From positions 1 to 34,807 of the forward strand of contig DAOVMU010000001.1 in NCBI GenBank assembly GCA_030630585.1: a stretch of 34,807 bases of DNA, written 5' to 3'. The stretch is from Candidatus Bathyarchaeota archaeon (GTDB lineage Archaea; Thermoproteota; Bathyarchaeia; Bathyarchaeales; Bathycorpusculaceae). Numbering within the stretch: position 1 is the stretch's first letter; every line of letters starts with the position of its first letter. Made by a program: the position numbers and the translations under genes. The notes under the pieces are model-generated. The model worked only from the letters and a program-made list of their open reading frames with translations, was not told where the DNA came from and did no database searches. Below are positions 8,359 through 34,775 of the stretch, piece after piece.

Positions 8359-9140
8359 CGGAATCGCCTCTGCAACAGGTTCGTAAGGAGACTTATCGTC
8401 AATACAATGGCTAATAATATTGTGGCTAATGCTATGCTTAAGGAGATTTCTCCACGACCAGTTTCCATAGCGATTGCAGTCGTCAAAACTCTGGTGCTTC
8501 CACGAACATTGTGACCAATCATAAAGGCGACGCCTAACTCAGCAATTGCCCTGTTAAAGCTTCCCATGACAGCCAACGCAACGCTAGAGGTTGATTCCTT
8601 CAAAACGGCAAAGGCAGCTTCAACTTCTGAAGCCCCCAAAGTTTTAGCCAAGTCTTTAATTTCAGGTTCAACAGCTTCAACAGCGCTTACTGTAAAGCTT
8701 ATCATTATAGGCGTTATGAGAATCGCTTGCCCCAGAGCGACACCTAAGGGATTAATAAAGAGGTCTAAGAATCCAAGAGGGCCAGAGCTGGAGAGCAGAA
8801 GATACAATATTAAGCCTAATGCGACAGTGGGCATTCCAAGCAGTGCATTAAATATGCTTTTGACAAAATCTTTCCCAACGAAACTTCCGAGACCAATGAT
8901 CAGTCCAGTTGGGACACTCCAGATAATCGCCAACGCTGTCGCTGTTCCTGACACGTAGATTGATCGCAGTGTTACTTCCATGATTTCAGGATCCGCTGAA
9001 ACAATTAATGTAATTGCTCCTTTCAGGCCTTCATAAAATTCTTCAACCGAAGCAATAACCAAAACTATTGCTACAATCACAAAAAAAGAAATCAGAAGAG
9101 GAATCGGTTTCAACTCGTTTCTCAGTCTCATATAGCTCAC
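8355..9140 (-). CDS. tupB: ABC transporter permease (tungstate uptake type)
   Basis: A multi-span hydrophobic 261-aa protein with an EAA-like loop (AKTLGASEVEAAFAVLKES). It sits between the binding-protein and ATPase genes. Confidence 0.75.
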   Translation of the reverse strand: MSYMRLRNELKPIPLLISFFVIVAIVLVIASVEEFYEGLKGAITLIVSADPEIMEVTLRSIYVSGTATALAIIWSVPTGLIIGLGSFVGKDFVKSIFNALLGMPTVALGLILYLLLSSSGPLGFLDLFINPLGVALGQAILITPIMISFTVSAVEAVEPEIKDLAKTLGASEVEAAFAVLKESTSSVALAVMGSFNRAIAELGVAFMIGHNVRGSTRVLTTAIAMETGRGEISLSIALATILLAIVLTISLLTNLLQRRFR

Positions 9141-9165
9141 TTTTCTCCTTTCAAGCTATTTTTGG

Positions 9166-10161: not shown

Positions 10162-10188
10162 TTCACCAGCTCCTTCAGCATTATGCAT

Positions 10189-10336
10189 GTGTGTGCATAT
10201 CGCTTTTTTTATTAAGGATCCACCTTATAAACATTGCAAAGCAAAAAATCGCCGATTCGGTTTCCTTTCAAGCGTAACGCTTAACTAATAGGCAACATCG
10301 ATATGAATAGCCGTGCATAACACTGGAGCCAATAGC
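10189..10336. promoter_or_regulatory. Divergent tupA / moaA control region with A/T-rich TATA-like boxes and a short inverted repeat
   Basis: This is the intergenic region between divergently transcribed operons. It contains tttttttattaagg and ccttataaaca boxes, and the inverted repeat AAGCG-TAA-CGCTT at 10270-10282. There is no experimental support. Confidence 0.25.
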
Positions 10337-11329
10337 ATGACCATCAAAACCAAGAAAGACGAAACGCCATCGGTCACATTACATGATAAATTCGGCAGAG
10401 CACTTAACAGCCTAAGAATTTCTGTCACCCAAAGATGCAACCTCCAATGCTTTTACTGTCACAGGGAAGGTGAAGCTGCTTCAAAAAACGAAATGACTAA
10501 GGAAGAAATCGCAAAGATTGCAAGAATGGCATGCGAGTTTGGCATGAAGAAGATAAAGCTAACAGGTGGCGAACCTCTTCTCAGGGAAGATCTTCCAGAC
10601 ATTGTCCGGGAAATCGCTGAATATGCTAACGAAGTTTCCTTGACAACCAACGGTGTGCTGTTAGAAAAATATGCCCAAACGCTTTCCAAAGCAGGGCTTA
10701 AACGGGTGAACGTAAGCCTACCATCACTTAACCCTGAACACTTCCGAAGGATCACGAAAAAAGACTGCGCCCAACAAGTGAAGGACGGCATAAAAGCAGC
10801 TGTGCAAAGTCATCTTCACCCAGTTAAGATCAATATGGTCGTGTTGAAGGGAATCAACGTTGACGAAATCCCGAAGGCTATAGATTTTGCGCAAGAAGTT
10901 GGCGCCATACTTCAACTGATCGAATTTGAACCAATTCAACCTGAAAATTACGTTCACTGGAAAACGTTCCACTATGATCTGGTCTCTACAGAAAACTGGT
11001 TGAAGGAGAAGGCTGTTTCGATTCAAGAGAATCCTCTTCATAAAAGAAGAAGATACATTTTAGAGAAAAACAGTAGTCCAGTGTGTGTAGAGATTGTCCA
11101 ACCCATGCACAATTCCACATTCTGTGAAAACTGCACTCGCCTGCGGGTCACCTCCAACGGCAAATTGAAACCGTGTCTCCTCAGAAAGAACAATCTTGTG
11201 GACATCGTCTCACTTATCAGAAAAGGTGCAAGTCCAGATGAATTAAGAGAAGCTTTTAGAAAGGCAGTCATGCTTAGGGAACCATATTGGAAAAGAAGGA
11301 ATGAAGAACTCCAGTTGGCATTTGCTTAG
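10337..11329 (+). CDS. moaA: GTP 3',8-cyclase MoaA (radical SAM)
   Basis: LRISVTQRCNLQCFYCH carries the CxxxCxxC motif. GGEPLLR and C-terminal Cys residues (CENCTRLRVTSNGKLKPCL) supply the auxiliary cluster. A TGGAG Shine-Dalgarno lies upstream of ATG 10337. Confidence 0.9.
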   Translation: MTIKTKKDETPSVTLHDKFGRALNSLRISVTQRCNLQCFYCHREGEAASKNEMTKEEIAKIARMACEFGMKKIKLTGGEPLLREDLPDIVREIAEYANEVSLTTNGVLLEKYAQTLSKAGLKRVNVSLPSLNPEHFRRITKKDCAQQVKDGIKAAVQSHLHPVKINMVVLKGINVDEIPKAIDFAQEVGAILQLIEFEPIQPENYVHWKTFHYDLVSTENWLKEKAVSIQENPLHKRRRYILEKNSSPVCVEIVQPMHNSTFCENCTRLRVTSNGKLKPCLLRKNNLVDIVSLIRKGASPDELREAFRKAVMLREPYWKRRNEELQLAFA

Positions 11330-11344
11330 GCAGTGGTGATAACA

Positions 11345-11743
11345 ATGTTGAAGATAACGTATGAGGATTTCTCCATAGAGGAAATTATTCAAGAAACCAA
11401 GGCTAAGGAGATCGGTGCCATCGTTTCTTTTATTGGAGTTGTTCGTGGGAAATCTAACAGCAAGGATGTTGACAAGTTCGAAATTAAACCTCCTGAAGAG
11501 ATGGCTCTTCACCAAATGAAAAAAATTCGAGCTGAAACCTTCCAAAAATTCGACGTGAAACGAATATCAATTGTCCAAAGAATTGGTTCGCTTAAGGTTT
11601 CAGAAAACATCCTGCTGATTGTTGTGGGCGCTCCACATCGTGACGAAGCATTCAAAGCATGCAGACATGTTTTAGAACAAATGAAAAAGATGGTGAAACA
11701 CTGGGAAAAAGAAATCTGCATGAGAGAAAAATCAGTGGATTAA
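11345..11743 (+). CDS. moaE: MoaE-like molybdopterin synthase large subunit (divergent paralog 2)
   Basis: GAIVSFIGVVRG, VQRIGSLKVSE, APHRDEAF and HWEKE are collinear with MoaE, but they diverge at positions that are conserved in paralog 1 (HR to QR; PIWKKE to KHWEKE). Confidence 0.65.
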   Translation: MLKITYEDFSIEEIIQETKAKEIGAIVSFIGVVRGKSNSKDVDKFEIKPPEEMALHQMKKIRAETFQKFDVKRISIVQRIGSLKVSENILLIVVGAPHRDEAFKACRHVLEQMKKMVKHWEKEICMREKSVD

Positions 11744-11753
11744 AGGTGAAAAC

Positions 11754-12227
11754 ATGACAAGGAAACATGGGGGATTACGTCAACCTTTGAAAATGGTAGA
11801 TGTATCTAACAAACCTGTAATTAAGAGAACCGCAGAAGCAGAAGGCAAGATTTGGCTGCAACCTGTAACTATTAAGAAATTACGTCGCGGACTCGTTGAG
11901 AAAGGAGATGTTTTCTCAGCAGCAACCATCGCTGGAATACTCGCTGCAAAAAAAACCCCGGAACTTATTCCCTTATGCCACTTAATTCCCTTATCTAAGG
12001 TAGACATACACTTCAGTGTTCACGAAGAATATGTCACTGCGAAATGCACAGCGATAGGAGAATGTAAAACAGGCGTCGAAATGGAAGCGCTCGTAGGTGT
12101 AAGCGCGGCGTTGTTGACCATGTGGGACATGGTAAAATCCTTGGAAAAAGACGATAAAGGACAATACCCCCGCACAAAGATAACCGAAATAAAGGTTCTC
12201 AGTAAGAAGAAGGAGACAACAACGTAA
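11754..12227 (+). CDS. moaC: Cyclic pyranopterin monophosphate synthase MoaC
   Basis: KRTAEAEG, ELIPLCHLIPL, GVEMEALVGVSAALLTMWDMVK match the MoaC signature. An AGGTGA Shine-Dalgarno precedes the ATG. Confidence 0.9.
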   Translation: MTRKHGGLRQPLKMVDVSNKPVIKRTAEAEGKIWLQPVTIKKLRRGLVEKGDVFSAATIAGILAAKKTPELIPLCHLIPLSKVDIHFSVHEEYVTAKCTAIGECKTGVEMEALVGVSAALLTMWDMVKSLEKDDKGQYPRTKITEIKVLSKKKETTT

Positions 12228-12724
12228 TGAGTGAACATGAGCTACACCAATATGTCAAGGCAAACTTTGCAGTTCTAACAATAAGCGACACACGAAACGA
12301 AAAAACTGACGAGTCAGGAAAAATCGCAAAGAGATTAATTGACAGCGAAGGACATCAAGTTCTTGCTTACAGAATCATTAAGAACGATAAGGCTTTGATT
12401 CAAACTAACATGAAGGAGACACTTCAAAATCCCAGAATCAACGTCATTGTCACAATCGGCGGCACTGGCATAAGCAAAAAAGACCTAACCATCGAATCCA
12501 TATCGGAACTATTGGATAAAAAAATCGAAGGCTTCGGAGAACTTTTCAGAAACCTAAGCTACCAAGAAATCGGCGAAGCAGCTATGATTAGCCGGGCAAC
12601 TGCAGGAACCGTCAACGGAAAACTTGTCTTCTGTCTTCCAGGATCCAAAAATGCAGTGAAACTAGCCATAAACAAATTGATACTGCCGGGACTGGGACAC
12701 ATCATCAAGGAGGCTAACCGATGA
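12227..12724 (+). CDS. moaB: MoaB/MogA-family molybdopterin adenylyltransferase
   Basis: FAVLTISDTR..., VIVTIGGTGISKKD, GELFR..., and FCLPGSKNAV are present. The start overlaps the moaC stop (TAATG). Confidence 0.85.
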   Translation: MSEHELHQYVKANFAVLTISDTRNEKTDESGKIAKRLIDSEGHQVLAYRIIKNDKALIQTNMKETLQNPRINVIVTIGGTGISKKDLTIESISELLDKKIEGFGELFRNLSYQEIGEAAMISRATAGTVNGKLVFCLPGSKNAVKLAINKLILPGLGHIIKEANR

Positions 12725-13938
12725 GTAAAATGACTCCGTTCAAGGAACTCGTATCTTATGAAGAAGCTTTGAAACGAATCCACAAATCTATAAAACCCAT
12801 CAATCGAACAGAATCTGTTCCCATAGAAAAAGCTCTTGATAGAGTTCTCGCACAAGAAATCATGGCAAACATGTCTGTGCCACCTTTCCATAGGGCAGCC
12901 ATGGACGGATATGCAGTCAAAGCAGAGGAAACTTTCGGAGCCTCGTCCTTCAAACCAAAAACTCTGAAGCTTACAGAAATTCTGCATGCTGGCGCATCAT
13001 CAAATGAAGTATTAGACAAAGGAGAATGTATTCAAGTTGCAACTGGCAGTCCCGTTCCCAAAGGTGCAGACGCTGTTGTCATGGTTGAATTCACCGAGAG
13101 AAGCGACAATACTGTTAGCATTTTGAAACCAGTATATCCAGGAGCAAACATTTCGCCCAAAGGAGAAGACGTTGAAGAAGGGCAGATTGTCCTTGAAATT
13201 GGAAAACAGCTTTTTCCCGCTAGAATCGGTGTATTAGCTGCTCTGGGACGAGAAGAAGCAACAGTGTACGAGAAACCGCGGATCGCAGTGGTTCCAACGG
13301 GAACTGAGATTCAAGAAGTCGGATCTCCTCTTAAGAAAGGACAGATTTACGATGTAAACTCATACACACTATCCTCCATTATAACTAAAAATGGGGCCAT
13401 TCCAGTAAAATGCAAAGCTGTTCCAGACACAGCTGACGAACTCAGAACAACCGTAAAAAAACTGATTCATCACGATATGATCGTCTTTTCAGGCGGAAGC
13501 TCCGTGGGTGAACAAGACCTCTTAGTACGTGTAGTTCAGGAGTTCGGAACCGTTCTCTTTCACGGTATCCAAGTGAAACCTGGCAAACCAACCTTATTTT
13601 CTCTAATAAGAGGAAAACCTGTCTTTGGAATGCCTGGATACCCAACATCTTGCCTGCTCAACGCTTATCTACTACTCGCTCCCGCCATCCGACAGATGGC
13701 GAGGTTACCGCCAAAAATAGAGAAAACCGTGAAAGTGAAACTTGCCAAAAGAGTTGTATCCTCCACAGGCAGAGCACAGTTTCTAACGGTGAAAATAAGA
13801 GACAATCAAGCTTATCCCGTTTTTAAACAGTCGGGAGCAATAACAAGCATGACAGAAGCTGACGGATACATAATCTTGCCAATTAACATCGATGTTGTCG
13901 AAAAAAACGAAGAAGTAACCGTGTTTTTGCTCGATTAA
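12721..13938 (+). CDS. moeA: Molybdopterin molybdo/tungsto-transferase MoeA
   Basis: PPFHRAAMDGYAV, the central MoCF-biosynthesis domain (VFSGGSSVGEQD) and GMPGYPTSC are present. The start overlaps the moaB stop as ATGA. Confidence 0.9.
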   Translation: MSKMTPFKELVSYEEALKRIHKSIKPINRTESVPIEKALDRVLAQEIMANMSVPPFHRAAMDGYAVKAEETFGASSFKPKTLKLTEILHAGASSNEVLDKGECIQVATGSPVPKGADAVVMVEFTERSDNTVSILKPVYPGANISPKGEDVEEGQIVLEIGKQLFPARIGVLAALGREEATVYEKPRIAVVPTGTEIQEVGSPLKKGQIYDVNSYTLSSIITKNGAIPVKCKAVPDTADELRTTVKKLIHHDMIVFSGGSSVGEQDLLVRVVQEFGTVLFHGIQVKPGKPTLFSLIRGKPVFGMPGYPTSCLLNAYLLLAPAIRQMARLPPKIEKTVKVKLAKRVVSSTGRAQFLTVKIRDNQAYPVFKQSGAITSMTEADGYIILPINIDVVEKNEEVTVFLLD

Positions 13939-23422: not shown

Positions 23423-25303
23423 TTGCACGGTTATGCAGGTCGAATCCTTCACGTAGACTTAACAACAGGCAAAGCCCATGTTGAGCCCTTGAACGGAGAA
23501 TACGCAAGAAAATACATAGGTGGAATAGGTCTAGGAATCCGACTGTTGTTAGACCAGTCTGAACCAGGAGTAGATCCCTTCAGTCCAGAAAACCCGCTGA
23601 TTCTCACAACAGGACCAATATCAGGCACTATGTGGCCTACTGGCGGAAACGGACATGCCTTCGTTTCAAAATCACCACAAAGCTTCGGAGTCGGTGAATC
23701 CAAAGCCCACGGCTCGTTCGGAACAGAACTGAAAAGAGCTGGATATGACGCCGTTATCTTTAAGGGCAAAGCTGAAAAACTCGTTTACGTGTGGATTGAC
23801 GATGATTCTGTACAGCTTTTAGACGCATCACAGCTTAAGGGTAAGTCACCAGCTGAAACAGAAGACGCCATAAAGGAAGAGTTAGGCGACTATTACATTC
23901 GTGTCGCCTCTATAGGCCCAGCTGGAGAAAAACTTGCTCGCCTAGCCTGTGTCATTAACGAAAAAACCCGCGCTGCTGGAAGAACTGGAATGGGCGCTGT
24001 TATGGGTTCAAAAAACCTTAAAGCAATCGCGGTGCGTGGAACCCTTGACATTACAGTAGCGAAGCCAGAGGAGTTCATGGAATTTGTCAAAGAATTTCAC
24101 GAAAGAATGAAAGGCCCAGCTACACACAAATACAGAACCCTTGGCACTGCTGCAAACGTGCTAGTGCACAATTCCCTAGCCTGCATGCCCACAAGAAATT
24201 ACAACAACGCGTCTTTTGAAGGAGCAGAAAAGGTAAGCGGAGAAAATCTCAACGAAAGATTTGTGGCAAAAATAATAGGATGCAGCTCTTGTGCAATGAG
24301 ATGTGAACACATGTGTGTTGTTCCCGAAGGCCCCTACAAAGGAACTATGACTAGAATGGAATATGAGACCCTATGGGCTATGGGACCATACTGTGGAGTA
24401 GACCGGTTGGATGCCATTATAAAAGGAATGGATCTCTGCAATTACTACGGAATAGACGCAATTGGCGCAGGAGTCATAGCTGGTTTTGCCATGGACTGCT
24501 ACGAGAAAGGAATATTAACAGAGAAAGATCTCGAAGGAATAGATGCCAGATTTGGAAACCACGAGGCTATGGTTCAGCTCATTGAAAAAATCGGCACACG
24601 TGAAGGTATCGGTGATATACTGGCTGAGGGCGTGAAAATCGCTGGAGAAAAAATAGGTAAAGGAGCAGAAAAGCTGGCACAGCACATTAAAGGAGTTGAA
24701 GTTACTGGTTACGATCTTAGAACACTCAAAACAGCTGCCCTGGGCTTTGCAGTATCCTTCCGTGGAGCAGATCATAACAGACATGGAGCCTATAGCTTCG
24801 ACGTTAAAGGAAAAGTCAACCGATTCATTGTCGAGAAAGGAAGAGGAAAACTGGTTAAGGACATGGAAGACCAGTACACCATAGTTGATTCATTAATCGT
24901 CTGCAAATTCTCAAGAGGCACTTACTACAAGGAATTTGAAGACATGGCCAAGCTTTACAATTTAGTTACGGGAGTTGAGATGACGGCGGAGGATCTGAGG
25001 CAGGCTGGTGAGAGAATAAACAATGTTGCCAGACTATTCAATATTAGAGAAGGCTTGGGTAGAAAGGATGACACATTACCATACAAGGTTATGCATCTTC
25101 CAGTCCCAGACGAAGGCCCATCAAAAGGAGCCTACGTTACACAAAAAGAACTAGATTTCCTTCTAGACGACTATTACGAAACACGCGGATGGACAAAAGA
25201 GGGCAAGCCAACCAAAGAAAAACTCAAAGAACTGGGAATGAACGACCTCATCCCCATAGTTGAGGCAAAAACTGGACCACGAGAAAAAGCGGGGGAGGAG
25301 TAG
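23423..25303 (+). CDS. aor: Aldehyde:ferredoxin oxidoreductase family tungstopterin enzyme
   Basis: YAGRILHVDLTTGK at the N-terminus, GRTGMGAVMGSKNLKAIAV, the [4Fe-4S] motif GCSSCAMRCEH and the pterin-binding DSLIVCKF are present. The 626-aa length is typical of AOR/FOR-type members. It starts at TTG behind a strong Shine-Dalgarno; the nearby ATG 23419 is out of frame. Confidence 0.9.
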   Translation: MHGYAGRILHVDLTTGKAHVEPLNGEYARKYIGGIGLGIRLLLDQSEPGVDPFSPENPLILTTGPISGTMWPTGGNGHAFVSKSPQSFGVGESKAHGSFGTELKRAGYDAVIFKGKAEKLVYVWIDDDSVQLLDASQLKGKSPAETEDAIKEELGDYYIRVASIGPAGEKLARLACVINEKTRAAGRTGMGAVMGSKNLKAIAVRGTLDITVAKPEEFMEFVKEFHERMKGPATHKYRTLGTAANVLVHNSLACMPTRNYNNASFEGAEKVSGENLNERFVAKIIGCSSCAMRCEHMCVVPEGPYKGTMTRMEYETLWAMGPYCGVDRLDAIIKGMDLCNYYGIDAIGAGVIAGFAMDCYEKGILTEKDLEGIDARFGNHEAMVQLIEKIGTREGIGDILAEGVKIAGEKIGKGAEKLAQHIKGVEVTGYDLRTLKTAALGFAVSFRGADHNRHGAYSFDVKGKVNRFIVEKGRGKLVKDMEDQYTIVDSLIVCKFSRGTYYKEFEDMAKLYNLVTGVEMTAEDLRQAGERINNVARLFNIREGLGRKDDTLPYKVMHLPVPDEGPSKGAYVTQKELDFLLDDYYETRGWTKEGKPTKEKLKELGMNDLIPIVEAKTGPREKAGEE

Positions 25304-25305
25304 CA

Positions 25306-25815
25306 ATGGTCAAAATTCACGAAAGAAAATTTGTGTCAGCAGATCCAGAAAAATGCGTAGGCTGCCAAGTCTGTGAATATATATGCTCACTAACAAAGGA
25401 ACAGGCTTTCAACCCATTAAAATCCCGGATACGCGTTGTTCGAATAAACCAGCTAATTAACTTAGCGGTCACATGCAGACTCTGTGAAGACCCACCTTGC
25501 GTTGCTGCATGTCCAAGAGACGCCTTGACACAGTCAGAGGAAACTGGTGTAATAATGGTGGATGAAGACAAATGCAACGGCTGCGGATGGTGCATTGAGG
25601 CATGTGATTATGGAGCAATCATGTTGCACCCCGAAAACAAAGTCGTGTTCATCTGTGATCTATGTCAAGAGCAAGGAGAACCCCAATGTGTTAAATGGTG
25701 CCCAGAGGAAGCCCTAGACTTAGTGACAAGTGACGTCTTGGCTCAGAAGGCAAGAATCACAGCAGTAAAGAAACTATTCCAAGAAGCCCTAAAAACTGCT
25801 CCTGTAGCACCTTAA
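25306..25815 (+). CDS. Poly-[4Fe-4S] ferredoxin-type electron-transfer subunit coupled to the AOR gene
   Basis: Four Cys clusters are present: CVGCQVCEYIC, CRLCEDPPCVAACP, CNGCGWCIEAC and CDLCQEQGEPQCVKWCP. The start lies 2 nt after the aor stop. Confidence 0.8.
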   Translation: MVKIHERKFVSADPEKCVGCQVCEYICSLTKEQAFNPLKSRIRVVRINQLINLAVTCRLCEDPPCVAACPRDALTQSEETGVIMVDEDKCNGCGWCIEACDYGAIMLHPENKVVFICDLCQEQGEPQCVKWCPEEALDLVTSDVLAQKARITAVKKLFQEALKTAPVAP

Positions 25816-25946: not shown

Positions 25947-28900
25947 TTATGGTTCTTTGTATCCGTATCTAGAGAGCAGTATGACTGCGTCGAAGAGGAA
26001 AACTTGGCCGTTACAGTTTATGTCCAGATTAGGATCGTAGCGAGGGGAGTCTGCCTTGGAGCCATAAGCTTTTAGCAGCGTTACAGCGTCGAAAAGGTCC
26101 ACGTCACCATCTGGCCCTTCAACATCGCCAGGCCACACGATGATTACAGTGTCACCTACGTAAGTGTTGTCAGCGGTATCTGTTTCGCCGAGAACTGGTG
26201 TAGCGTACGCGCTTAGAGTGTAGTTTAAGTATCTTGTTTCACTTGCATCCCACTTGAATGGTACAATTTTGGTTTCGCCAACTAGTAGCGAGACGTTGGT
26301 GGCTGCTATGACGTTTGTTGTATTCCAATAGAGTGTTAGAGTGAAAGTTTCATTTGTTGGACCCTCGTTTGTGACGGTTACGTTGATTGGATGTGTTAGG
26401 TTTTGCCCCAAGATTGTCTGTCCATAACATATCGTAAGGTTTGTCACAGCGATATCAGGTTCCGGCAATGGTTCAAGTGGTGACGTTATCACAGCATATT
26501 CGATGCGAGCTTCCAATTCTGGATTATCAAAGTACCCATCGAGTGCCCAATGATAACCGCTTGGACTTGGCAGAAGCGTCACATGGTAGGCGTCATGAGA
26601 GACTAAACTTGCATCGTTATGTGTGACATATGGTGGTTCTGGTGGATGCACGTGTGGAACCGGTGAACGTCCTGGAGTTCTTCCAGCTTCAAAATCATCT
26701 CTAATGGGGTTGCTAATGAGCAGTTCCTGGGTGGTTGAGTTTATACCTGCAACTGTCACGTAATGACCGCCCTCACGAATTTCGGTGCCATACCAGTAGA
26801 AGCCCAACAGCAGGACAACATCTTGGCATCTTTCAACTTCTTCTTCGATGAACCAGAAGAATTCCCAGTCTTCCCACGCATCTGCCGTGTGTTCGTAGAA
26901 TATACCAGTCTCACCCATATGGGCGATAACTATTAACGCATCATTCATATCGATCACGTTGTCGGTCCATGGAGGATAAGTTGATGATGCAGGCCATATG
27001 TCAGCGGCGAGGTTCCACCCCGGCATACCGGGCGAGGTTCCATAAGCAGCAGCAACTATATCACCATCTATCGAATCTACTACTCCATCGCCATTTACGT
27101 CTCCCTGTGGGTTAACTCCGCTCCATGAAAGGTACTGAGCAAGCCCTGCTTCCATGTCATGAACGTATGTGCCTGACCACCAGACTCCTGTGAATGGCCC
27201 TGTTCTCAAAGCGTCGCAATCCATCAGCCAAGCTAAGTGCTCAACAAGAAATGGAAGGTTTGCCGGGTCATGGTCATCCCAAGGGGGACCCCCATAGCTT
27301 TGAACAAGTGGAAAACTGTCGCTGTAGATTGGCGGCTGCGGCGAACCTGGATTGAGGTAGTACTCGTATTTCGAGTCATACCACCAGATTGAGTTTGCGC
27401 ATGCTACAGGTCCGCAATGGCTCCATGCACCCCACATGTCGGTCCAATTGTAGGTTCCCCATTGTCTCTGGTCAAAGTCTGGCATTCCACTAGGCGCATA
27501 GTCTGGATACGGCGGTTTAATGTACCATGGTTCTTCCGGTTCTTCAAGCAGTCTTGCAGTTACATTCCATGGTGGTGGAATTGGCGGATCTTGTGGATCA
27601 TCTACAAAGTCTATGTGGAATTCGTTTATTCCGTCGTTTGCGTCTACATGGAAGGTTATGCCAGCCCATTCAGGTGGCCAGATTATTTCCCACCATGAAC
27701 ATGGCGCAGGTACAAAACCCGGTGGATCAATAACTACGAACCAGTCGCACGTCTCGATGTCATCGATTTTTCTCTCTGCTGTTAGCTGGTATATTGGTAG
27801 TGGAATGAATGGTTCAGGCCATACCTCATCTACGTGGAAGAGTCCATCTGCAGGAATATACTGGTCTACGTGGAATTCGAAGCCTGTCGGTTCGCCAGTG
27901 TCTGGATCTAGTATTTCCCACCACGAACAATTCTCAGGGGTAAGTGACGGATCACCAACTCTGAACCAGGTGCAAGGTTGTATGATGTCTATTTTCTTTC
28001 TTACTGTAACAGTGTATGATGGCGGTATTGTGATTATTATGTCAGGTTTTGTTTCATCTACATGGAACATCGTGAATCCATCAGTTACGTCTACGTGGAA
28101 CTCTAAGCCTGTTGGGGCACCAGTATCGTCCAGCACTTCCCACCATGAACAAGGGTCAGGAAGGTACTCTATCGGGTCTACAATTATGAACCAGTCGCAA
28201 GGTTCGATCTCTATAATTTTCTTTTCAGCAATCACGTAGGGCACTGGAAACTTAAACACATAAGGTTCTGGGATTACTTCGTCAATGTGGAACTCACAGC
28301 TCTCATTAGTCCAATCAACATGGAAGTTATAGCCAGTCGGCTCGCCGGTCCAAGGATCTATTATCTCCCACCAAGTACACGGTTCTGGATACCAGTCGCT
28401 AGGCCAGTGAACCTCATAATATTCACAGGGTTCAATGATGGGTATCTTTTGAATTGCCCACACTTCGTACCACGGAAACGGCAGCACATAAATGCCGGGG
28501 TCACCGTAGATTAATACCTCGTCTATGTGGAATTCACAGCTCTCATTAGTCCAGTCAACATGAAACTCAACGCCAGTCAGTTCGCCAGTTTCAGGATCAA
28601 TTATTTCCCACCAAGTGCACGGTTCCGGATACCAGCCGCTAGGCCAGTGAACTTCGTAGTATTGGCATGGTTCTATGATGTCTATCTTTTTGACAGCTTT
28701 GAAAACCTCGTAAGGAATTGGAAATCCCTGGACTGGCACCGTTGCATCCACATGGAATGTGTCAAAACCATCATTGCCATCGACGTGAAACTCGCCTAAG
28801 AGTTCCCCTGTATACATGTCAATTGCCTCCCACCATGAACATTCTTCAGGCAGAAACCCTTCTGGCTCCACGACCCTGAGTAAGTCACACGGTTCGAGCC

Positions 28901-29168
28901 AACCATCACTTAGCTCAAAAACCAGCATTACGATGCCTGACTGAAACGCCATTTCAACACCGGATTCGAATACCATTGATGTGTAGTCTTTGAACGTCAT
29001 TTCTACATCGGTCGTGAAGTCGATTTTTTCGCCAGAAGTGAAACTCATATTGCCATTTTCAGCGTAGGCTACGTTGAACGGTAGAAATGCTAAGGAACTG
29101 GCAAGCATTAGCGAAACTAAAATCAAAGCCGAAGCATTAGAACTAAGGTTTTTTGTCAATTTCTCCAT
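25947..29168 (-). CDS. 1073-aa secreted multidomain surface protein: signal/anchor, six novel Cys/Trp repeats, papain-like (C39-like) domain with an inserted dockerin-like module, CARDB-like domain, C-terminal dockerin-like module
   Basis: The N-terminal hydrophobic segment is ALILVSLMLASSLAFLP...AYA. Repeats span aa 91-540. WSHCGPVACANSIWWY and GGHYVTVAG look like a Cys/His peptidase pair. GDVNGDGVVDSIDGDIVAAAYG and DVDLFDAVTLLKAYG...DINCNGQVFLFDAVILLSRYG are dockerin-like F-hand pairs. PDIAVTNL...VTVTNEGPTNETFTLTLYWN is CARDB-like. Confidence 0.8.
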   Translation of the reverse strand: MEKLTKNLSSNASALILVSLMLASSLAFLPFNVAYAENGNMSFTSGEKIDFTTDVEMTFKDYTSMVFESGVEMAFQSGIVMLVFELSDGWLEPCDLLRVVEPEGFLPEECSWWEAIDMYTGELLGEFHVDGNDGFDTFHVDATVPVQGFPIPYEVFKAVKKIDIIEPCQYYEVHWPSGWYPEPCTWWEIIDPETGELTGVEFHVDWTNESCEFHIDEVLIYGDPGIYVLPFPWYEVWAIQKIPIIEPCEYYEVHWPSDWYPEPCTWWEIIDPWTGEPTGYNFHVDWTNESCEFHIDEVIPEPYVFKFPVPYVIAEKKIIEIEPCDWFIIVDPIEYLPDPCSWWEVLDDTGAPTGLEFHVDVTDGFTMFHVDETKPDIIITIPPSYTVTVRKKIDIIQPCTWFRVGDPSLTPENCSWWEILDPDTGEPTGFEFHVDQYIPADGLFHVDEVWPEPFIPLPIYQLTAERKIDDIETCDWFVVIDPPGFVPAPCSWWEIIWPPEWAGITFHVDANDGINEFHIDFVDDPQDPPIPPPWNVTARLLEEPEEPWYIKPPYPDYAPSGMPDFDQRQWGTYNWTDMWGAWSHCGPVACANSIWWYDSKYEYYLNPGSPQPPIYSDSFPLVQSYGGPPWDDHDPANLPFLVEHLAWLMDCDALRTGPFTGVWWSGTYVHDMEAGLAQYLSWSGVNPQGDVNGDGVVDSIDGDIVAAAYGTSPGMPGWNLAADIWPASSTYPPWTDNVIDMNDALIVIAHMGETGIFYEHTADAWEDWEFFWFIEEEVERCQDVVLLLGFYWYGTEIREGGHYVTVAGINSTTQELLISNPIRDDFEAGRTPGRSPVPHVHPPEPPYVTHNDASLVSHDAYHVTLLPSPSGYHWALDGYFDNPELEARIEYAVITSPLEPLPEPDIAVTNLTICYGQTILGQNLTHPINVTVTNEGPTNETFTLTLYWNTTNVIAATNVSLLVGETKIVPFKWDASETRYLNYTLSAYATPVLGETDTADNTYVGDTVIIVWPGDVEGPDGDVDLFDAVTLLKAYGSKADSPRYDPNLDINCNGQVFLFDAVILLSRYGYKEP
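27549..28898 (-). repeat. Six in-frame tandem coding repeats (74-80 codons each) within the 1073-aa gene
   Basis: Units start at aa 92, 166, 246, 322, 397 and 472, each at [EQ][PT]C. Each contains C[ST]WWE[AIV][IL], FHVD and FH[VI]D. Units 2 and 3 (about 28206-28673) are also highly similar at the DNA level with a 240-nt offset. Confidence 0.85.
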
Positions 29169-29269: not shown

Positions 29270-31663
29270 TTAGTGACAGTCACATCGTCTTCCATAGTTC
29301 ATGCACACTATCATTAGGTCATATTCGTCTACGACGTTATATGGTTCCGCAATGTCACATCTGGGATTCCAGTTGGGGTCTCCTGGCTGAGAACCAAAAG
29401 CTAAACATATCCAGACGGCATCGTAAAGATTAACTGCAAGGTCATGGTTAATGTCAGCAGGACTCCAATAGAGGTTCATTAAAGGGTAGTTGTCAATGCC
29501 TAGCCACGGCAATTCGGTGTCTCCAATTCCATCACCATTAGAATCAGTACCATTATAATCACTCCAATAATTACCTTCGCAACCATTGTCCCAGACATTT
29601 TGGTATGAAAACACCAAATCTGCCTGTTCACTGTTTTCAACTAGATTGTTGTGAAAAATACTGTTAAGGTGTGAAGAAGAAAACCGGATTCCATAAAGAT
29701 TATTCAGAATAGTGTTACGTCGAAGATAGTTGTGACTGGCTTCATAAAGGGAAATCCCTTTCTCACAGTCTCCTGCAATGTTATTTTCAACGACATTATA
29801 ATCCGATTTATAAAGTTGAATCCCAACCCAATTCTTAAAGCAGCAACTATTGTTTACTATGTTGTCATTTGAAGCTTGAAGATATATGCCATAACAGTTC
29901 TCTGAAGCCGTTACGTTTTCTATCCTCGAGTCGGTTACATTATACCAGAAGAGACCATGACCGTTTTTAGTTAGGTTCAAGTTCCGCACAGTAATGTTAA
30001 GGCAGTTTATGAGGTATAGAACGCCTATGCTTGTTTGGTTGTCAAACACTTCATCTTCAGAGCCGACGACATAATTGATTGGCTTCCCGTCAACAGTGTT
30101 GCTTACGTCTACCGTATTGTTGAAATTCGAAAAACCGCCGCCGAAAACGCCGAAATTGTACGAATTGTTAAAAATCTCATTCTGATTGAGAACGTTGTCG
30201 CTTGAATGCCATAACAATACTCCATTTTCATAATTGGAAGAAATAATGTTGTCGTCTATGAGACAGCTTTGTGAAAAGAAAAGGTAAAGCCCGATTCGAT
30301 TACTCGTTATTAAGCAGTGACGTATGTTGCTTCCAACGCTATGATTTAAGAGGACGCCGCAATCATCTCCATAAGGTGGAAAGTTGAACCCGCTGTTACA
30401 TATGGTGAAATTGATAACGTTGACGTTGTCTGCATTCACTGACAAAACCGTGCCTGTGTTTCCTCCATCTATAACTGTTGTTGTTTTATTCTCCCCGATA
30501 AGAGTCAAAGGTTTATGTATATTCACGTTCTCACTGTATATACCTGGGTCAACCCGTAATGTATGTCCGTCCAAAGTTTCGGAAGCATCTACTGCGGATT
30601 GTATTGTTAAATAGGTTAAGTTCGTGTTTATATTACGGACAGAGCCGTAGGGACGCATCAGAGGATACCTATCTACGTCATAACTATTGACAGCATAAGG
30701 GGTGTCACCTATCCCGTCGCTACAGGTTTGGTTTTGATAAGGTCCGCTGTGTATATCTGTGCCATTGTAGCGGCTCCAGTGGTTTCCTCCTGAGGGGTAA
30801 CCATCATCCCATATATTTCCTGACCATACATGAATGAACGGGTTCGTATTGTTGATGAAATTGTTGTGATAGATGAAGTTGTTGAAGAATGTTCCGTTTG
30901 GAGGCATTTTTTCTATCGTGCCATCATATGTATTGTTGTAAACCGTGTTGGCCGTTATGTTGTTGTATGAGCATGGTGAATACAGGCGAACGCCTTGGCT
31001 GTTTTGAGTAATATTATTTCCTTTCACAGTACAGCCTGTTGCGTTTTGCAGGTGAACGCCTGCAATACAATTGGAAACGTTGTTGCCAATTGCTGTGCAA
31101 TTAACGGAATTTATTAATCTGATTCCATAGCCATCACCCGCTATTGTGTTGTGGAAAACTCGAGAATTCTGTGAATGATTTAATCTAATGTTCTGGCAGT
31201 TATAAAACAGAAAGTTATTTTTGATCTCGCAGTTATCAGCACGATAAACATAGATTCCGTTTTTAAACCATCCCCAACCACTGTTCTGCAATGTGAAATC
31301 AGCTATGGTTACATCATCCGCTGTTATACCTACAACAGTACCGCCACTACTACCGTCAATTATTGTTGTCGAAGCGTTTTCCCCAATAAGCGAAATTGTC
31401 TTGTTTATGACTATACGTTCATAGTAGACGGCTGAAGGAACATAGATGGTTGAGCCATTTTCAGCTTTGTTAATCGCCTCTTGTATTGAGCTAAAATTCG
31501 CCTGAATGAACCGTCGTCCAAGGTTCATAATAAGAAAATCAATGAGAGAAGGAGAATCACGATGCGCAGCAACTCGCAGGAAAACAAAGCCGGAAACAAT
31601 CAACCAGAAACCTATCGAAAAAACCACTAGCAACTCCAACATCTTCACCGGATTTATTCGCAT
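29270..31663 (-). CDS. 797-aa secreted/anchored right-handed parallel beta-helix (PbH1 / NosD-like) repeat protein with a C-terminal dockerin-like module
   Basis: The N-terminal TM is LLVVFSIGFWLIVSGFVFL. Two blocks of about 22-aa beta-helix repeats are present (NxIxxNxxxGIxLxxSxxNxI, for example IENVTASENCYGIYLQASNDNIV). Each block ends in a DGIGDTPY / GDGIGDTELP motif. The C-terminal ADINHDLAVNLYDAVWICLAFG...VVDEYDLMIVCMNYG is dockerin-like. I count roughly 30 N-x-S/T sequons by eye. Confidence 0.8.
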   Translation of the reverse strand: MRINPVKMLELLVVFSIGFWLIVSGFVFLRVAAHRDSPSLIDFLIMNLGRRFIQANFSSIQEAINKAENGSTIYVPSAVYYERIVINKTISLIGENASTTIIDGSSGGTVVGITADDVTIADFTLQNSGWGWFKNGIYVYRADNCEIKNNFLFYNCQNIRLNHSQNSRVFHNTIAGDGYGIRLINSVNCTAIGNNVSNCIAGVHLQNATGCTVKGNNITQNSQGVRLYSPCSYNNITANTVYNNTYDGTIEKMPPNGTFFNNFIYHNNFINNTNPFIHVWSGNIWDDGYPSGGNHWSRYNGTDIHSGPYQNQTCSDGIGDTPYAVNSYDVDRYPLMRPYGSVRNINTNLTYLTIQSAVDASETLDGHTLRVDPGIYSENVNIHKPLTLIGENKTTTVIDGGNTGTVLSVNADNVNVINFTICNSGFNFPPYGDDCGVLLNHSVGSNIRHCLITSNRIGLYLFFSQSCLIDDNIISSNYENGVLLWHSSDNVLNQNEIFNNSYNFGVFGGGFSNFNNTVDVSNTVDGKPINYVVGSEDEVFDNQTSIGVLYLINCLNITVRNLNLTKNGHGLFWYNVTDSRIENVTASENCYGIYLQASNDNIVNNSCCFKNWVGIQLYKSDYNVVENNIAGDCEKGISLYEASHNYLRRNTILNNLYGIRFSSSHLNSIFHNNLVENSEQADLVFSYQNVWDNGCEGNYWSDYNGTDSNGDGIGDTELPWLGIDNYPLMNLYWSPADINHDLAVNLYDAVWICLAFGSQPGDPNWNPRCDIAEPYNVVDEYDLMIVCMNYGRRCDCH

Positions 31664-31786: not shown

Positions 31787-32305
31787 TCAGGGAAGGATCT
31801 CCAGCAAAATGTCAACGATTTTCTGCGCTGATGCTTCAACCTCAGGCGTTAGTCCTTCCCCAAAACCAGCCTTCTTGGGCTCTATCAACAGCAGGGCAAT
31901 TTTTGCCTCTGTCGTTTCAGCAAGGTACTCGCAAAAAATCCTTAAGGGAAGTGCATGTGTAGAATATGCTGGAAACGCCGCTAACCGTTCTGGTTTAATA
32001 AGTCTAGAATCTCCAGGTTCTAAGCCTAGAATCGCCGCGTCTACTAGCAAGACATGTGTCGGATTGAAGTCTATGATTTTCTGGATAAAGTTTTCCGGGA
32101 CAGTCTCACATTCAATCAAGTAGACATTTTCAGAAACTTTTCCCTTTAAATCTTGAGCTATTTTAGTTCCAACAAAATCATCCATGCGAATAGGGTTTCC
32201 AATTCCGGCTACGACTACTTTTTCAGCGTTTGAGAGCCACGTCTTCAATTCTCCTTCCATCTTCCAGCCTCTGCTAATCATTGGACGATCTCCATAAAAA
32301 CCCAA
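31787..32305 (-). CDS. [NiFe] hydrogenase maturation endopeptidase (HycI/FrhD/HyaD family)
   Basis: VVVAGIGNPIRMDDFVGTKIAQDL is the GxGNxxxxDDGxG signature, and LLVDA and STHALPL are present. It lies directly downstream of the large subunit gene. The start may be an internal Met (32260). Confidence 0.8.
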   Translation of the reverse strand: MGFYGDRPMISRGWKMEGELKTWLSNAEKVVVAGIGNPIRMDDFVGTKIAQDLKGKVSENVYLIECETVPENFIQKIIDFNPTHVLLVDAAILGLEPGDSRLIKPERLAAFPAYSTHALPLRIFCEYLAETTEAKIALLLIEPKKAGFGEGLTPEVEASAQKIVDILLEILP

Positions 32306-32331
32306 CGAAAACTGAAAGGAAATAAAAAGGG

Positions 32332-33786
32332 CTATCTTTGCACTGTTTTGAGAAGCCTTTTTTCGTGGTTATAGATTTCTACGGTGAAGGGCATTTGTCC
32401 AATTGCGAAGTGTGAGGCACATGCGAAACACGGGTCATAGGCTCTGAAAGCCATTTCAACCTTGTTGAGTAAGCCTTGGTTTACGTTACCACCGTGAATT
32501 AAGCCTTTGGCTGCATCACGAACGGACATGCAAATTGCTGGGTAATTGTTAGTTGTTGCAACAATCAGGTTCACATTTTTGATGAGTGCATTCTCGTCCA
32601 ACAAATAATGATGGATTAAGGTTCCTCTAGCTGCCTCTACTACTCCTACGCCTTCTCCAGGTTTGCCTGGCAGGTTGCGGATATTCGTGCTTGTTATCTC
32701 CGAGTCTTTGCATAGTTCTACTGCTCTTTCTGCAGCGTAAAGTAACTCAATGAGCCTAGCCCAGTGGAAAGCCAATGTGGAATGGACAGGTTTTCCACCT
32801 AAAGCCTTGTACATAAGCTCATACTCTTCTTGTGCAAGCGGGGTAGCCATACCATCTGCGGCGTTAAGTCTTCCAAGAGGACCAACACGATATACTCCGC
32901 TGTCTACTCCATCAACGAAGCCTTTCCATCCCACCTTCTTCAAGTAAGGCGCCTTCACATACGTCCATTCTTCCACATGCTCAGCGACATGATCAAGATA
33001 ATCTTTAGGTTCAAACTTTAGGAACTCGTTACCGGACGGGTCGACAACTCTTACTTTGCCGTCGTAGAAGTTAACTTTGTTATTTTCGTCAACAATGCCC
33101 ATATAATAGGTTTTTAACGTATAGGCGGCGCTTTTGATCATGTCCACGTATTTTTCATTTCCTAGAACAATGTCGTGAAACAGCTTCAACGAAAGCTTTG
33201 CAAATTCCACACATGAATTAGCCATTTCTTCAATTTCTTGTCTCTCTTCTTCGCTTAATGATTTAGAGATTCCTCCCGGCAATCCGCAAACTGGATGAGT
33301 GGCTTTTCCTCCGATGATTTCTGTTATTTTTTGTCCGTACGCCCTATGTTTAATGACTTGTTTGCCAATTTCCAAACCTGCCTTTTCAATTACGCCTAGA
33401 ATGTTTCTTTTCTCTGGCGGCGCTTCAGGTCCAACTATGAAGTCTGGTCCACCCAAATAGAAGAAGTGTAGTATGTGGTCATAGATTATGTAGCCGCAAT
33501 ACATTAGTTCCCTAAGCTTTTTTGCAGCGGACGGCGGTTCAACGTTGAATGCAGCATCTAAAGCTTTTGTTCCAGCATAATGATGGGCGACAGGGCAGAC
33601 TCCACATATTCTGCTGGTTATTTGCGGCATGTCTTCAGCTTTTCTTCCAACACAGAATCTTTCGAAACCTCTGAGTTCTGGAATTTGAAGATACGCATTT
33701 GCCACATTTCCCTGTTCATCCAGAAAAATCGTGATTTTTCCATGACCTTCCAGTCTTGTAATTGGGTTTATAATGACTTCTCTCAT
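32332..33786 (-). CDS. mvhA: [NiFe] hydrogenase large subunit, group 3 (MvhA/VhuA-like, F420-non-reducing type)
   Basis: The N-terminal ITRLEGHGKITIFLDEQGNV...ELRGFERFCVGRKAEDMPQITSRICGVCPVAHH contains the L1 motif RxCGxC. The C-terminal DPCFACASH is the L2 motif DPCxxCxxH. Size and N-terminus resemble MvhA. Confidence 0.85.
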   Translation of the reverse strand: MREVIINPITRLEGHGKITIFLDEQGNVANAYLQIPELRGFERFCVGRKAEDMPQITSRICGVCPVAHHYAGTKALDAAFNVEPPSAAKKLRELMYCGYIIYDHILHFFYLGGPDFIVGPEAPPEKRNILGVIEKAGLEIGKQVIKHRAYGQKITEIIGGKATHPVCGLPGGISKSLSEEERQEIEEMANSCVEFAKLSLKLFHDIVLGNEKYVDMIKSAAYTLKTYYMGIVDENNKVNFYDGKVRVVDPSGNEFLKFEPKDYLDHVAEHVEEWTYVKAPYLKKVGWKGFVDGVDSGVYRVGPLGRLNAADGMATPLAQEEYELMYKALGGKPVHSTLAFHWARLIELLYAAERAVELCKDSEITSTNIRNLPGKPGEGVGVVEAARGTLIHHYLLDENALIKNVNLIVATTNNYPAICMSVRDAAKGLIHGGNVNQGLLNKVEMAFRAYDPCFACASHFAIGQMPFTVEIYNHEKRLLKTVQR

Positions 33787-34775
33787 TTTTCCATAATCCT
33801 CCTTTTAAGAATTGAAGATGGTAGCGAGTACATGTAAAACGTTCCCAAGGGATCTTTTATTTGAGCAATAAGCTTTTCAATGTCAGCTTCCGTGTATTTT
33901 TCCTTCTCTTCTTCCAAGCCGAGTAATGACGCTAGGGCACTGATCATTGCAGCTCCCTGTTCAAGCGAGTTTGGACATGGTCCTCCGCATCCGGTGCATG
34001 GCATACCTGCTTTTATGCATCTTGCGGTGCATCCTCCACGGGTTGCTGGACCCATGCAGATTATTCCTTGTTCTAGAAGACATTTGTTTGGGTCTGGAAT
34101 TATCTCGTATATGCGATGTATTTCAGGGATTTGCATTTTTTCTTTCTTTAATGGGTTTAATGGACATTCATCGCAGACCGATTTTAAGGGAGCCAGCACT
34201 GAACCTTTAGGTGGAAGCTCACCTTTCACTATGGTTTCTAAAGCGCTTACTGTAAGTTCGACTGACGGTGGGCAGCCTGGAACAGAATAGTCAACGTCCA
34301 CCGTTTGAGCTAAGGTTTTTACAGTGTCGTAGAATTCTGGAAGCTCCAACTTGCCTTCTTTGACTGTAACTCGAGTTTTGGGAGTTACGCCTTCAGGGTT
34401 GATAGTAGAAATGTTTTGGAGGTAAGCCTTTTCAAACACTTCTCTTCTGTTTGCGACGTTTGCTAAACCTGGTATTCCTCCCATGTATGAGCATGACCCA
34501 TATGCAATCAAAACTTTTGATTTCTCCCTAAGTAATTTCGCCATTTTCTCGTTTTCTTCGGTTCTTACTGCACCGTTGAAAAAGCAGACATCTATGTATT
34601 TATCTGGCATGTTCTCAACATCCTTGTATTTGATGTCCATTGCAACGGGCCAGAAAACAATGTCTGCTACTTGTACGACTTCCAAGATTTTCTCGTTAAT
34701 GTCTAATATTGAGATTTCGCAGCCGCCGCAGCTTGCAGCCCAGTAAAAGCCGAATTTCAGTTTTTCTTTCGCCAT
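33783..34775 (-). CDS. mvhG: [NiFe] hydrogenase small subunit, group 3 (MvhG-like), no Tat signal
   Basis: FYWAASCGGCEISILD is the proximal cluster CxxC. GSCSYMGGIPG and the C-terminal CLLEQGIICMGPATRGGCTARCIKAGMPCTGCGGP cluster motifs are present. There is no twin-arginine leader, so it is cytoplasmic. It overlaps mvhA as ATGA. Confidence 0.8.
   Translation of the reverse strand: MAKEKLKFGFYWAASCGGCEISILDINEKILEVVQVADIVFWPVAMDIKYKDVENMPDKYIDVCFFNGAVRTEENEKMAKLLREKSKVLIAYGSCSYMGGIPGLANVANRREVFEKAYLQNISTINPEGVTPKTRVTVKEGKLELPEFYDTVKTLAQTVDVDYSVPGCPPSVELTVSALETIVKGELPPKGSVLAPLKSVCDECPLNPLKKEKMQIPEIHRIYEIIPDPNKCLLEQGIICMGPATRGGCTARCIKAGMPCTGCGGPCPNSLEQGAAMISALASLLGLEEEKEKYTEADIEKLIAQIKDPLGTFYMYSLPSSILKRRIMEK

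Follow-up and report, generated by a model that had tools for sequence, protein, structure and literature searches.

The window analysed here is a 34,807-nucleotide stretch of DNA from a Candidatus Bathyarchaeota archaeon (contig DAOVMU010000001.1), and our subject is one of its genes, at 25947..29168 on the minus strand, an open reading frame (ORF) of 1073 amino acids (aa) that encodes a secreted modular protein. The product consists of a signal peptide, a pre-repeat segment, six tandem repeat units, a putative peptidase domain with an inserted dockerin, a CARDB domain and a C-terminal dockerin, in that order, and orthologues of the gene are present in 14 Bathyarchaeia genomes. Judged by sequence profiles and a structural model, the six units are copies of a hitherto undescribed extracellular module that folds independently, is all-beta with five predicted strands and is about 75 aa long; we call it the CWWE/FHxD module. 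That the unit represents an undescribed family is well supported by the sequence searches, and the architecture suggests that the array of units is probably a binding or presenting arm. All coordinates are positions in the window, and all parts of this protein are on the minus strand.

The first-pass annotation of the window, which was made from the letters alone, had placed six tandem Cys/Trp-rich units at 27549-28898, corresponding to aa 91-540. Six units are indeed there, although hidden Markov model (HMM) matches and alignment give better bounds of aa 92-545, or 27534-28895. Unit 1 (aa 92-165, 28674..28895) is of the type that we call 'first' (cluster 4 in the clustering described below), and it is followed by two units of type 7, unit 2 (aa 166-245, 28434..28673), with the pattern HWPxxWYP...WTNESCEFHID, and unit 3 (aa 246-321, 28206..28433). 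Units 4 (aa 322-396, 27981..28205) and 5 (aa 397-471, 27756..27980), the first and second members of the pair that we modelled, are both of type 11, and unit 6 (aa 472-545, 27534..27755) is of the 'last' type, type 2, with the pattern WPxEWAG...PPPWNVTA. Each unit is 74-80 aa long, and in the alignment their pairwise identity is 38-75%, with unit 3 being 75% identical to unit 2 as the result of a lineage-specific duplication. Across the 1073-aa protein there are six regularly spaced copies of C[ST]WWE and twelve of FH[VI]D, and single units score 80-121 bits against the unit HMM, far above chance. The shared skeleton that had been proposed for all six units holds as a general pattern, but unit 6 departs from it, as it has WWEIIW where the others end this motif in Asp, no TG..G and no terminal KI. 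The two Cys reported for every unit are present throughout, as is the third Cys in units 2 and 3 (C211 and C291, within WTNESCEFHID), and the array holds 14 of the 20 Cys of the protein. It is also strongly acidic, with a net charge of -76 over 454 aa.

Repeats are a general hazard in metagenome assemblies, and nothing more specific than this speaks for an array created by misassembly or gene calling, which the first-pass annotation had named as a possibility to check. When codon-aligned, the DNA copies of the units are only 46-73% identical to each other, and Tandem Repeats Finder detected no DNA-level tandem repeat over the array. Fourteen independent Bathyarchaeia genomes and 2 further contigs carry comparable arrays, with five or six units whose types follow one another in the same sequence (six-unit arrays are found in loci L008, L014 and L042), and purifying selection acts across the whole ORF at 25947-29168. 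Because the DNA copies have diverged, there is no DNA tandem repeat and the same arrays are found in independent genomes, we rule out an artefact and regard the chance of one as negligible.

The profile and structure checks that had been proposed along with the repeats were run on the unit, on two-unit segments and on a model, with no significant match. In a hmmscan search of the whole protein against Pfam (E<=10), the only matches were Dockerin_1 and CARDB, both outside the repeat region at aa 92-545, and a scan of NCBIfam gave nothing within the array. None of the PKD, CARDB, Big, FN3 and Cadherin profiles matched the repeat region, nor did any carbohydrate-binding module (CBM) profile in the Pfam scans, nor did Beta_helix or NosD, whose coils of ~22 aa also differ from the unit period of 74-80 aa. 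PMBR and other wall-binding repeat profiles in Pfam were likewise unmatched over aa 37-545. Among 28 two-unit segments taken from 11 proteins, no Pfam family was matched by more than one member, with Cadherin appearing once (E 0.064). A profile built from 38 units and compared with the PDB sequences found only SalCis12 (9rce_B) at chance level (E 0.67). The earlier claim that the repeats belong to no named family is therefore upheld for Pfam, NCBIfam and the PDB sequences, including the two-unit segments.

Two candidate relationships were considered and set aside. In 9rce_B, residues 635-663 contain a local 'FFHVDIDGHKRWFHI' / FHVD..FHI match to the unit, which we take as probable chance, and Foldseek did not recover this chain; it is the sole solved structure showing a double motif similar to the FHVD..FHID hairpin. 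Homology between the unit and the CARDB domain of the same protein was rejected, as hhalign gave it a probability of 0.06%.

We modelled units 4-5 with AlphaFold2 from an alignment of 28 unit pairs. The two-unit model is confident (mean predicted local distance difference test score, pLDDT, 87.8; predicted template-modelling score, pTM, 0.69) and has five strands per unit. In the model, the first Cys leads into strand 1, SWWEVL makes up strand 2, and a hairpin of strands 3 and 4 carries both FHxD motifs; strand 5 comes after a Pro-rich loop. The novelty of the fold was judged by Foldseek against PDB and BFVD only, and neither search gave a match at E<=1e-3. The best PDB match had an E-value of 0.25, with query-normalised template-modelling scores (TM-scores) of at most 0.30, while the best BFVD match had an E-value of 6e-3, a TM-score of 0.34 and a root-mean-square deviation (rmsd) of 9.7 A. 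The weak PDB matches were mostly small beta-barrels, with E-values of 0.25-0.8, probabilities of at most 0.38 and rmsd values of 6-19 A. No Ig-like fold appeared at a useful score among the Foldseek matches, and the unit is predicted to have five strands rather than the seven to nine of a Greek-key beta-sandwich. The suggestion of an undescribed extracellular repeat fold thus stands as far as the family is concerned, while for the fold any claim of novelty reaches no further than the Foldseek searches of PDB and BFVD. Foldseek has limited power with beta domains of 75 residues, and as only these two databases were searched, we call the predicted fold new provisionally.

The module has a narrow distribution. 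With the array as query, just 14 proteins were found among 5.8 billion clusters, and all of the named ones are from Candidatus Bathyarchaeota. The unit profile gave 34 matches among 1.84 billion representative proteins, of which ~31 are true; P0043-P0045 were rejected as low-complexity false positives. Every genome-resolved case of a unit-bearing protein is from Bathyarchaeia. We observed four types of architecture in these proteins: (i) the window type, with a signal peptide, the periodic pre-repeat segment, 2-6 units, the peptidase, CARDB and a dockerin, (ii) a cohesin-first type, with an N-terminal cohesin-like domain, CARDB-like domains with single units between them and a terminal dockerin, (iii) the pre-repeat segment, three or four degenerate units and a cohesin, with or without CARDB, then a dockerin, and (iv) small proteins with two units and a C-terminal transmembrane anchor. 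The CWWE/FHxD unit is therefore a mobile module that also occurs in proteins without a peptidase.

Some of the homologues have further features. Protein P0017 (1415 aa) has an insertion of ~520 aa between the array and the peptidase (residues ~470-990) that is rich in 'W.IYYS[IV][YFW]', recalling the beta-propeller repeats of the BNR/sialidase type, and the start of the insertion is shared with P0005. An extra CARDB-like domain lies between the N-terminal array and the peptidase in P0020, P0021, L004, L028, L030 and L033. In P0021, which has many degenerate units, Ser replaces the catalytic Cys, so this protein may be an inactive paralogue.

One of the cohesin-first proteins, the distant member P0029, contains a cohesin-like domain, CARDB, two units and a dockerin, and its gene lies in a cluster of genes for extracellular proteins at L082:2743-15477 (metagenome contig Ga0310070_1004849). 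Among its neighbours, CARDB and a dockerin accompany both a Peptidase_C25 domain in one protein and NosD/beta-helix repeats in another; a second NosD/beta-helix protein has PKD/Big domains, and there is a separate dockerin protein. From its domain content, this cluster looks like a cellulosome-like set arranged around peptidases. Given the units in cohesin and dockerin proteins and the P0029 cluster, we assign the module to an archaeal cohesin-dockerin surface system. The 34,807-nt window itself contains no cohesin gene. Our literature search found no paper on the CWWE/FHxD repeat or on a Bathyarchaeia cohesin-dockerin system. The first-pass annotation included neither this cohesin-dockerin context and the dockerins nor the NosD-like partner and the fixed order of non-interchangeable unit types described next.

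We surveyed genomes with a profile of the peptidase domain, using one genome per species, and obtained 79 loci, which are from Bathyarchaeia and from bacteria (Anaerolineae, Dehalococcoidia, Zixibacteria, Gemmatimonadota, Ignavibacteria and others). CWWE/FHxD units were found in 14/79 of these peptidase loci, five or six in each, and all 14 are from Bathyarchaeia. In five close Bathyarchaeia relatives (L003, L005, L006, L012 and L017) the signal peptide leads directly into the peptidase with no array, and in eight loci (L004, L013, L015, L016, L026, L028, L030 and L033) another W/H/C-rich tandem repeat replaces the CWWE array. Because related peptidases carry either no N-terminal module or an unrelated one, the array is a swappable, non-catalytic accessory that the peptidase does not need.

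The alternative repeat, likewise undescribed, has units of ~65-90 aa (for example L004:8072-9997 and L013:8327-10000), with three P[IV]HMH motifs ahead of the first. Its units are of two alternating subtypes, 'WHELYPxYC..W..TSWED.GNG.LD..DQIDM....WYHVDRVT.T' and 'TLWHEVWP.YS..YHI..W.DNGNG.LD.CD.I......WWHVEE.A.DLILNEK', which are related to each other (hhalign 99.7%). A Pfam scan of this W/H-rich repeat gave no match. We rejected homology between it and the CWWE unit, as the hhalign probabilities were 8.7% and 3.1%.

Clustering of 85 units revealed position-specific unit types that keep a fixed order across 16 genomes or contigs: the 'first' type, the WTNESCEFHID type, the middle types and the 'last' type, WPxEWAG...PPPWNVTAEPY, which always adjoins the peptidase. 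The pattern 4-7-7-11-11-2 is found in the window, L014 and L042. Orthologous units are 51-65% identical across 15 genes, compared with 61% for the catalytic domain.

Directly upstream of the window gene, on the same strand, is a NosD-like gene of 797 aa (29270..31663, minus strand; Pfam NosD 2.9e-52, Beta_helix 2.8e-32), in whose product several stretches match beta-helix profiles, the N-terminus has a hydrophobic segment and the C-terminus looks dockerin-like by eye. Pfam found no dockerin at this C-terminus, and the resemblance is unconfirmed. In the 17 repeat-bearing genes, one has no upstream sequence, and a NosD-like homologue lies directly upstream on the same strand in 16/16 of the testable ones (the window, L002, L007-L009, L011, L014, L019, L020, L022-L025, L027, L042 and L044), versus 0/68 of the peptidase genes without repeats; because the repeat-bearing genes form one orthologous group, these counts are not phylogenetically independent. 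The other flanks vary. In the window there is a hydrogenase operon on one side and aldehyde:ferredoxin oxidoreductase (AFOR) with a ferredoxin on the other, and in L002 the neighbours are glutamine synthetase and, at the opposite end, TP_methylase. The NosD-like gene and the array-bearing peptidase gene are a conserved two-gene unit. Most of the partner proteins end in a transmembrane helix with a basic tail, while those of the window and L025 have a dockerin-like segment, which is clearer in L025.

The domain that follows the array (aa 546-897, 26478..27533) had been described as peptidase-like, and conserved columns together with weak profile and fold matches agree with this. We predict that it is a divergent papain-like cysteine peptidase (clan CA, C39-like); the fold class is reasonably supported and the activity is a prediction. 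The domain is 47-63% identical to its homologues. Gln569 and His802 (in GGHYVTVAG; G-H-[YF]-V-T) are invariant, Cys585 (in HCGPVA; W/H-C-G-P-V-A) is conserved in 12/13 members, and position 820 (in ISNP; I-S-[DN]-P) is Asn in the window protein and Asp in 12 homologues. The order of Cys, His and Asp/Asn and the spacing of ~18 residues from His to Asp/Asn are as in clan CA peptidases. In the AlphaFold model of the domain (pLDDT 76.8, pTM 0.81), Cys585 opens the helix at 40-60 and His802 is on the strand at 257-265. Seven of the 13 members weakly matched Peptidase_C39_2, with a best E-value of 1.6e-3 and no score shown that reaches the gathering cut-off. The top Foldseek list for the model is dominated by clan CA enzymes (TDE0362, IdeS/Mac-1, streptopain, calpain, phytochelatin synthase and staphopain), with probabilities up to 1.0 and no E-value stronger than 5e-3.

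The protein has two dockerins, which matches to Pfam Dockerin_1 (E 5.2e-7) and to solved dockerins place in type I. The inserted dockerin (aa ~686-755, 26904..27113) is complete and sits between the N- and C-terminal lobes of the peptidase. It was recognized by Dockerin_1, by a match to PDB 2y3n_B (E 1.2e-4; target-normalised Foldseek TM-score 0.76) and by a gap in the alignment of homologues, and it is missing from P0003, P0012 and P0014. The C-terminal dockerin (aa 1015-1073, 25950..26126) matches PDB 5k39_B (E 3.9e-6) and 4u3s_B and, weakly, Pfam Dockerin_1. Between the peptidase and this dockerin is the CARDB domain (aa 908-1003, 26160..26447; Pfam PF07705, E 7.8e-5 and 6.7e-6).

We counted residue conservation over 166 distinct units. 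The most conserved signature positions, numbered within the unit, are C3 (99%), C19 (88%), W22 (98%), H37 (96%), D39 (99%), H48 (99%) and D50 (98%). Both Cys are kept in 145/166 units, whereas 19 units have C3 alone, one has C19 alone and one, in P0023, has neither. The loss of both Cys in P0023 fits a disulfide pair. In one unit C19 is replaced by Asp, and degenerate distant units have lost H37 and kept H48. In the model, F36, V38, F47 and V49 would face the core, while H37/D50 and D39/H48 would be cross-strand pairs on the opposite face with C19 and W21 alongside. The His-Asp cluster could bind a metal, bind a polar ligand with the help of an aromatic platform, or be a purely structural His-Asp ladder, and W21/W22 next to His and Asp offer a hint of glycan binding that is suggestive only.

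Putting these observations together, we propose that a dockerin-tethered cysteine peptidase uses the array as its arm for targeting or binding, and that the array works with a surface-anchored NosD-like partner in a Bathyarchaeia cohesin-dockerin system, a proposal that we consider evenly poised between right and wrong. The dockerins would tether the peptidase to cohesin-bearing surface proteins, and the array would hold the polymer that serves as substrate (glycoprotein or debris of cell walls), the NosD-like protein encoded next to it, or the two together. The near-invariant W21/W22, H37, D39, H48 and D50, on or near the beta-hairpin, together with C3 (and C19), would then form either a ligand site or a stabilising metal or disulfide site. 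The model suggests some rigidity of the array. The first-pass annotation had also considered an array for adhesion or substrate binding that presents the peptidase; an accessory role of this kind fits the relatives that have no array or a different one, while a binding function, its ligand, rigidity, and disulfide or metal chemistry are properties that we infer. A more far-reaching version seems unlikely to us, in which the fold is new, the Cys/His/Asp/Trp cluster is a functional metal- or glycan-binding site, the fixed-order array is a docking platform for the NosD-like protein, and all of them belong to a Bathyarchaeia-specific 'peptidosome' with cohesin scaffolds and dockerin-bearing C25 and C39-like peptidases that degrades detrital glycoproteins or cell walls.

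Several points weigh against a binding arm of this kind or against parts of it. The case for binding comes entirely from architecture and conservation, and the clustering of C3, C19, H37, D39, H48 and D50, as well as the exposure of W21, was deduced solely from the strand boundaries of the model. Among the 20 units without C19, 19 still keep C3, which is awkward for a simple C3-C19 disulfide. The linkage of the NosD-like gene to the array may be retained synteny rather than a sign of direct interaction between the array and the partner. As for the folds, Foldseek is weak for beta domains of 75 residues and the weak top matches of the unit are all small beta-barrels, and for the peptidase domain all Foldseek E-values are above 1e-3 (5e-3 to 0.3).

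The array could instead be a passive rigid spacer or stalk whose units project the peptidase from a scaffold or surface, with the conserved residues being purely structural (core packing, a disulfide and a His-Asp ladder). Tandem small beta domains with Pro-rich linkers are typical of stalks, the pTM of 0.69 for the two-unit model suggests a defined geometry between units, the copy number varies from 2 to 6 among homologues, and the alternation of F36, V38, F47 and V49 with His and Asp is as in a hairpin with one face in the core. However, unit types are not interchangeable: their order is fixed, and their type-specific loops are conserved like the catalytic domain, which would be needless in a spacer. 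Because of this fixed order and conservation, we do not see the array as a neutral spacer. Polar His and Asp residues that are 96-99% conserved over 166 units would also be unusual for purely structural surface positions, and single units also occur between the CARDB domains of cohesin proteins. We therefore find the stalk doubtful, though still worth keeping in mind.

A metal-binding domain is improbable in our view, though compatible with a binding arm; here C3 (alone or with C19) and the pair H37 and H48 (alone or with D39 and D50) would chelate a transition metal such as Zn, Ni, Cu or Fe, for a structural purpose or for extracellular metal capture. The most conserved positions are a Cys, two His and two Asp, C3 persists in the absence of C19, one unit has Asp for C19, and the cross-strand pairs H37/D50 and D39/H48 would lie on one face with C19 beside H37, as read from the strand boundaries of the model. 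Disulfides outside the cell can be relied on less in the reducing, anoxic habitats of the host, and the unrelated alternative N-terminal module of the paralogues starts with three P[IV]HMH motifs. Set against this, P0023 has lost the Cys pair from each of its two units and yet kept all His and Asp, which looks like a disulfide independent of the His/Asp cluster, no known metal-site family was matched, and the degenerate distant units lose H37 and keep H48. As papain-like peptidases commonly carry N-terminal prodomains and the last unit type always abuts the peptidase, the array might also be a propeptide, inhibitor or intramolecular chaperone that is removed on activation. We consider this very unlikely, because close orthologues go directly from signal peptide to peptidase (the same five loci as above) or carry an unrelated repeat; in addition, the module occurs in proteins without any peptidase, and six copies conserved unit by unit over 450 aa would be excessive for a prodomain.

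If the array is a targeting or binding arm, its closest functional analogues are the enzymes of methanogens that combine PMBR repeats with a peptidase, and cellulosomal enzymes with CBM or X modules. The pseudomurein endoisopeptidases PeiW and PeiP and their archaeal relatives share this layout, in which non-catalytic repeats stand in tandem at the N-terminus, ahead of a papain-like or C39-like Cys-His domain at the C-terminus. In PeiW and PeiP the PMBR repeats target the enzyme to the polymer, whereas binding by the window array is only inferred. The array has no match to PMBR or any other Pfam family, its signature C..CWWE..FHVD..FHID is unrelated, the protein adds CARDB and two dockerins, and its host is from Bathyarchaeia, for which no link to pseudomurein is known. 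A related layout is found in A0A126R2S0, a different C39-like protein of methanogens that carries PMBR (PMC13642728).

Non-cellulosomal proteins with cohesins and dockerins occur in archaea generally (PMC9012536, citing Peer et al. 2009). Like the cellulosomal enzymes and scaffoldins of bacteria, the window protein is a modular secreted enzyme with dockerins and accessory modules, and relatives of the unit occur in scaffoldin-like proteins that bear cohesins and cluster with other dockerin-bearing hydrolases. The window system differs in consisting of C39-like and C25 peptidases and NosD-like beta-helix proteins rather than glycoside hydrolases, its accessory module belongs to none of the known CBM or X modules, and one of its dockerins is inside the catalytic domain. 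PKD, CARDB, Big, FN3 and cadherin domains are also tandem all-beta extracellular domains of ~75-100 aa that often serve as spacers or adhesion modules, but the CWWE unit matches none of their profiles and has five predicted strands instead of seven or more. The small beta-barrels (SH3/Tudor/Agenet-like, the N-terminal barrel of F1/V1-ATPase and the barrel of membrane-fusion proteins) are the only recurring theme among the non-significant Foldseek matches; they are similarly five- or six-stranded and ~60-80 aa long, and the scores give no evidence of homology or shared topology. What is new here is thus a domain family and possibly a fold, while the kind of modular extracellular protein is already known.

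Bathyarchaeia rank among the most abundant uncultured archaea of anoxic sediments, where detrital protein is believed to be part of their food. The locus reveals a module confined to one lineage and conserved to the same degree as the catalytic domain next to it, and it connects this module and the strictly conserved NosD-like/peptidase gene pair with proteins that bear cohesin, dockerin and CARDB domains and with a C25 peptidase that has a dockerin. It offers expressible targets for asking whether Bathyarchaeia assemble a cellulosome-like complex that degrades protein, as well as alignments from which two new families can be seeded, one for the CWWE/FHxD unit and one for the alternative WHE/WHVE repeat. 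A 'peptidosome', if it exists, would be the cellulosome's counterpart for protein degradation; a module that serves only as a structural spacer would be a routine new domain of unknown function.

The N-terminal part of the protein bears out the earlier view that this is an exported archaeal protein, as the gene is from Bathyarchaeia and begins with a signal peptide (aa 1-36, MEKLTKNLSSNASALILVSLMLASSLAFLPFNVAYA/E, 29061..29168). Read by eye from the sequence, the putative signal peptide has a basic n-region, a hydrophobic core and an AYA cleavage motif, and the N-termini of homologues are alike. The pre-repeat segment (aa 37-91, 28896..29060) is conserved in all full-length homologues and is retained even in the distant cohesin-containing relatives. 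It contains four or five copies of an x-[MI]-x-F-x-[ST]-G motif (MSFTSGEKIDFTTDVEMTFKDYTSMVFESGVEMAFQSGIVMLVF) with a period of 9-10 residues, and a Pfam scan of aa 37-91 gave no match. A similar '[VI]MNFTG' strand is found ahead of the isolated units in cohesin-first proteins.

On the plus strand, a 239-aa ORF at 27520-28239 runs opposite the repeats; its product is rich in Ser, Gly and His and of low complexity, and it looks like a shadow ORF of the array rather than a gene. Housekeeping and energy genes surround the two-gene surface unit (7297-13938, 23423-25815 and 31787-34775). They encode a molybdate/tungstate-type ABC transporter with the cofactor proteins MoaA and MoeA, the aldehyde:ferredoxin oxidoreductase together with a 4Fe-4S ferredoxin, both subunits (small and large) of a NiFe hydrogenase plus the HycI protease, and oxaloacetate decarboxylase subunits with biotin ligase.

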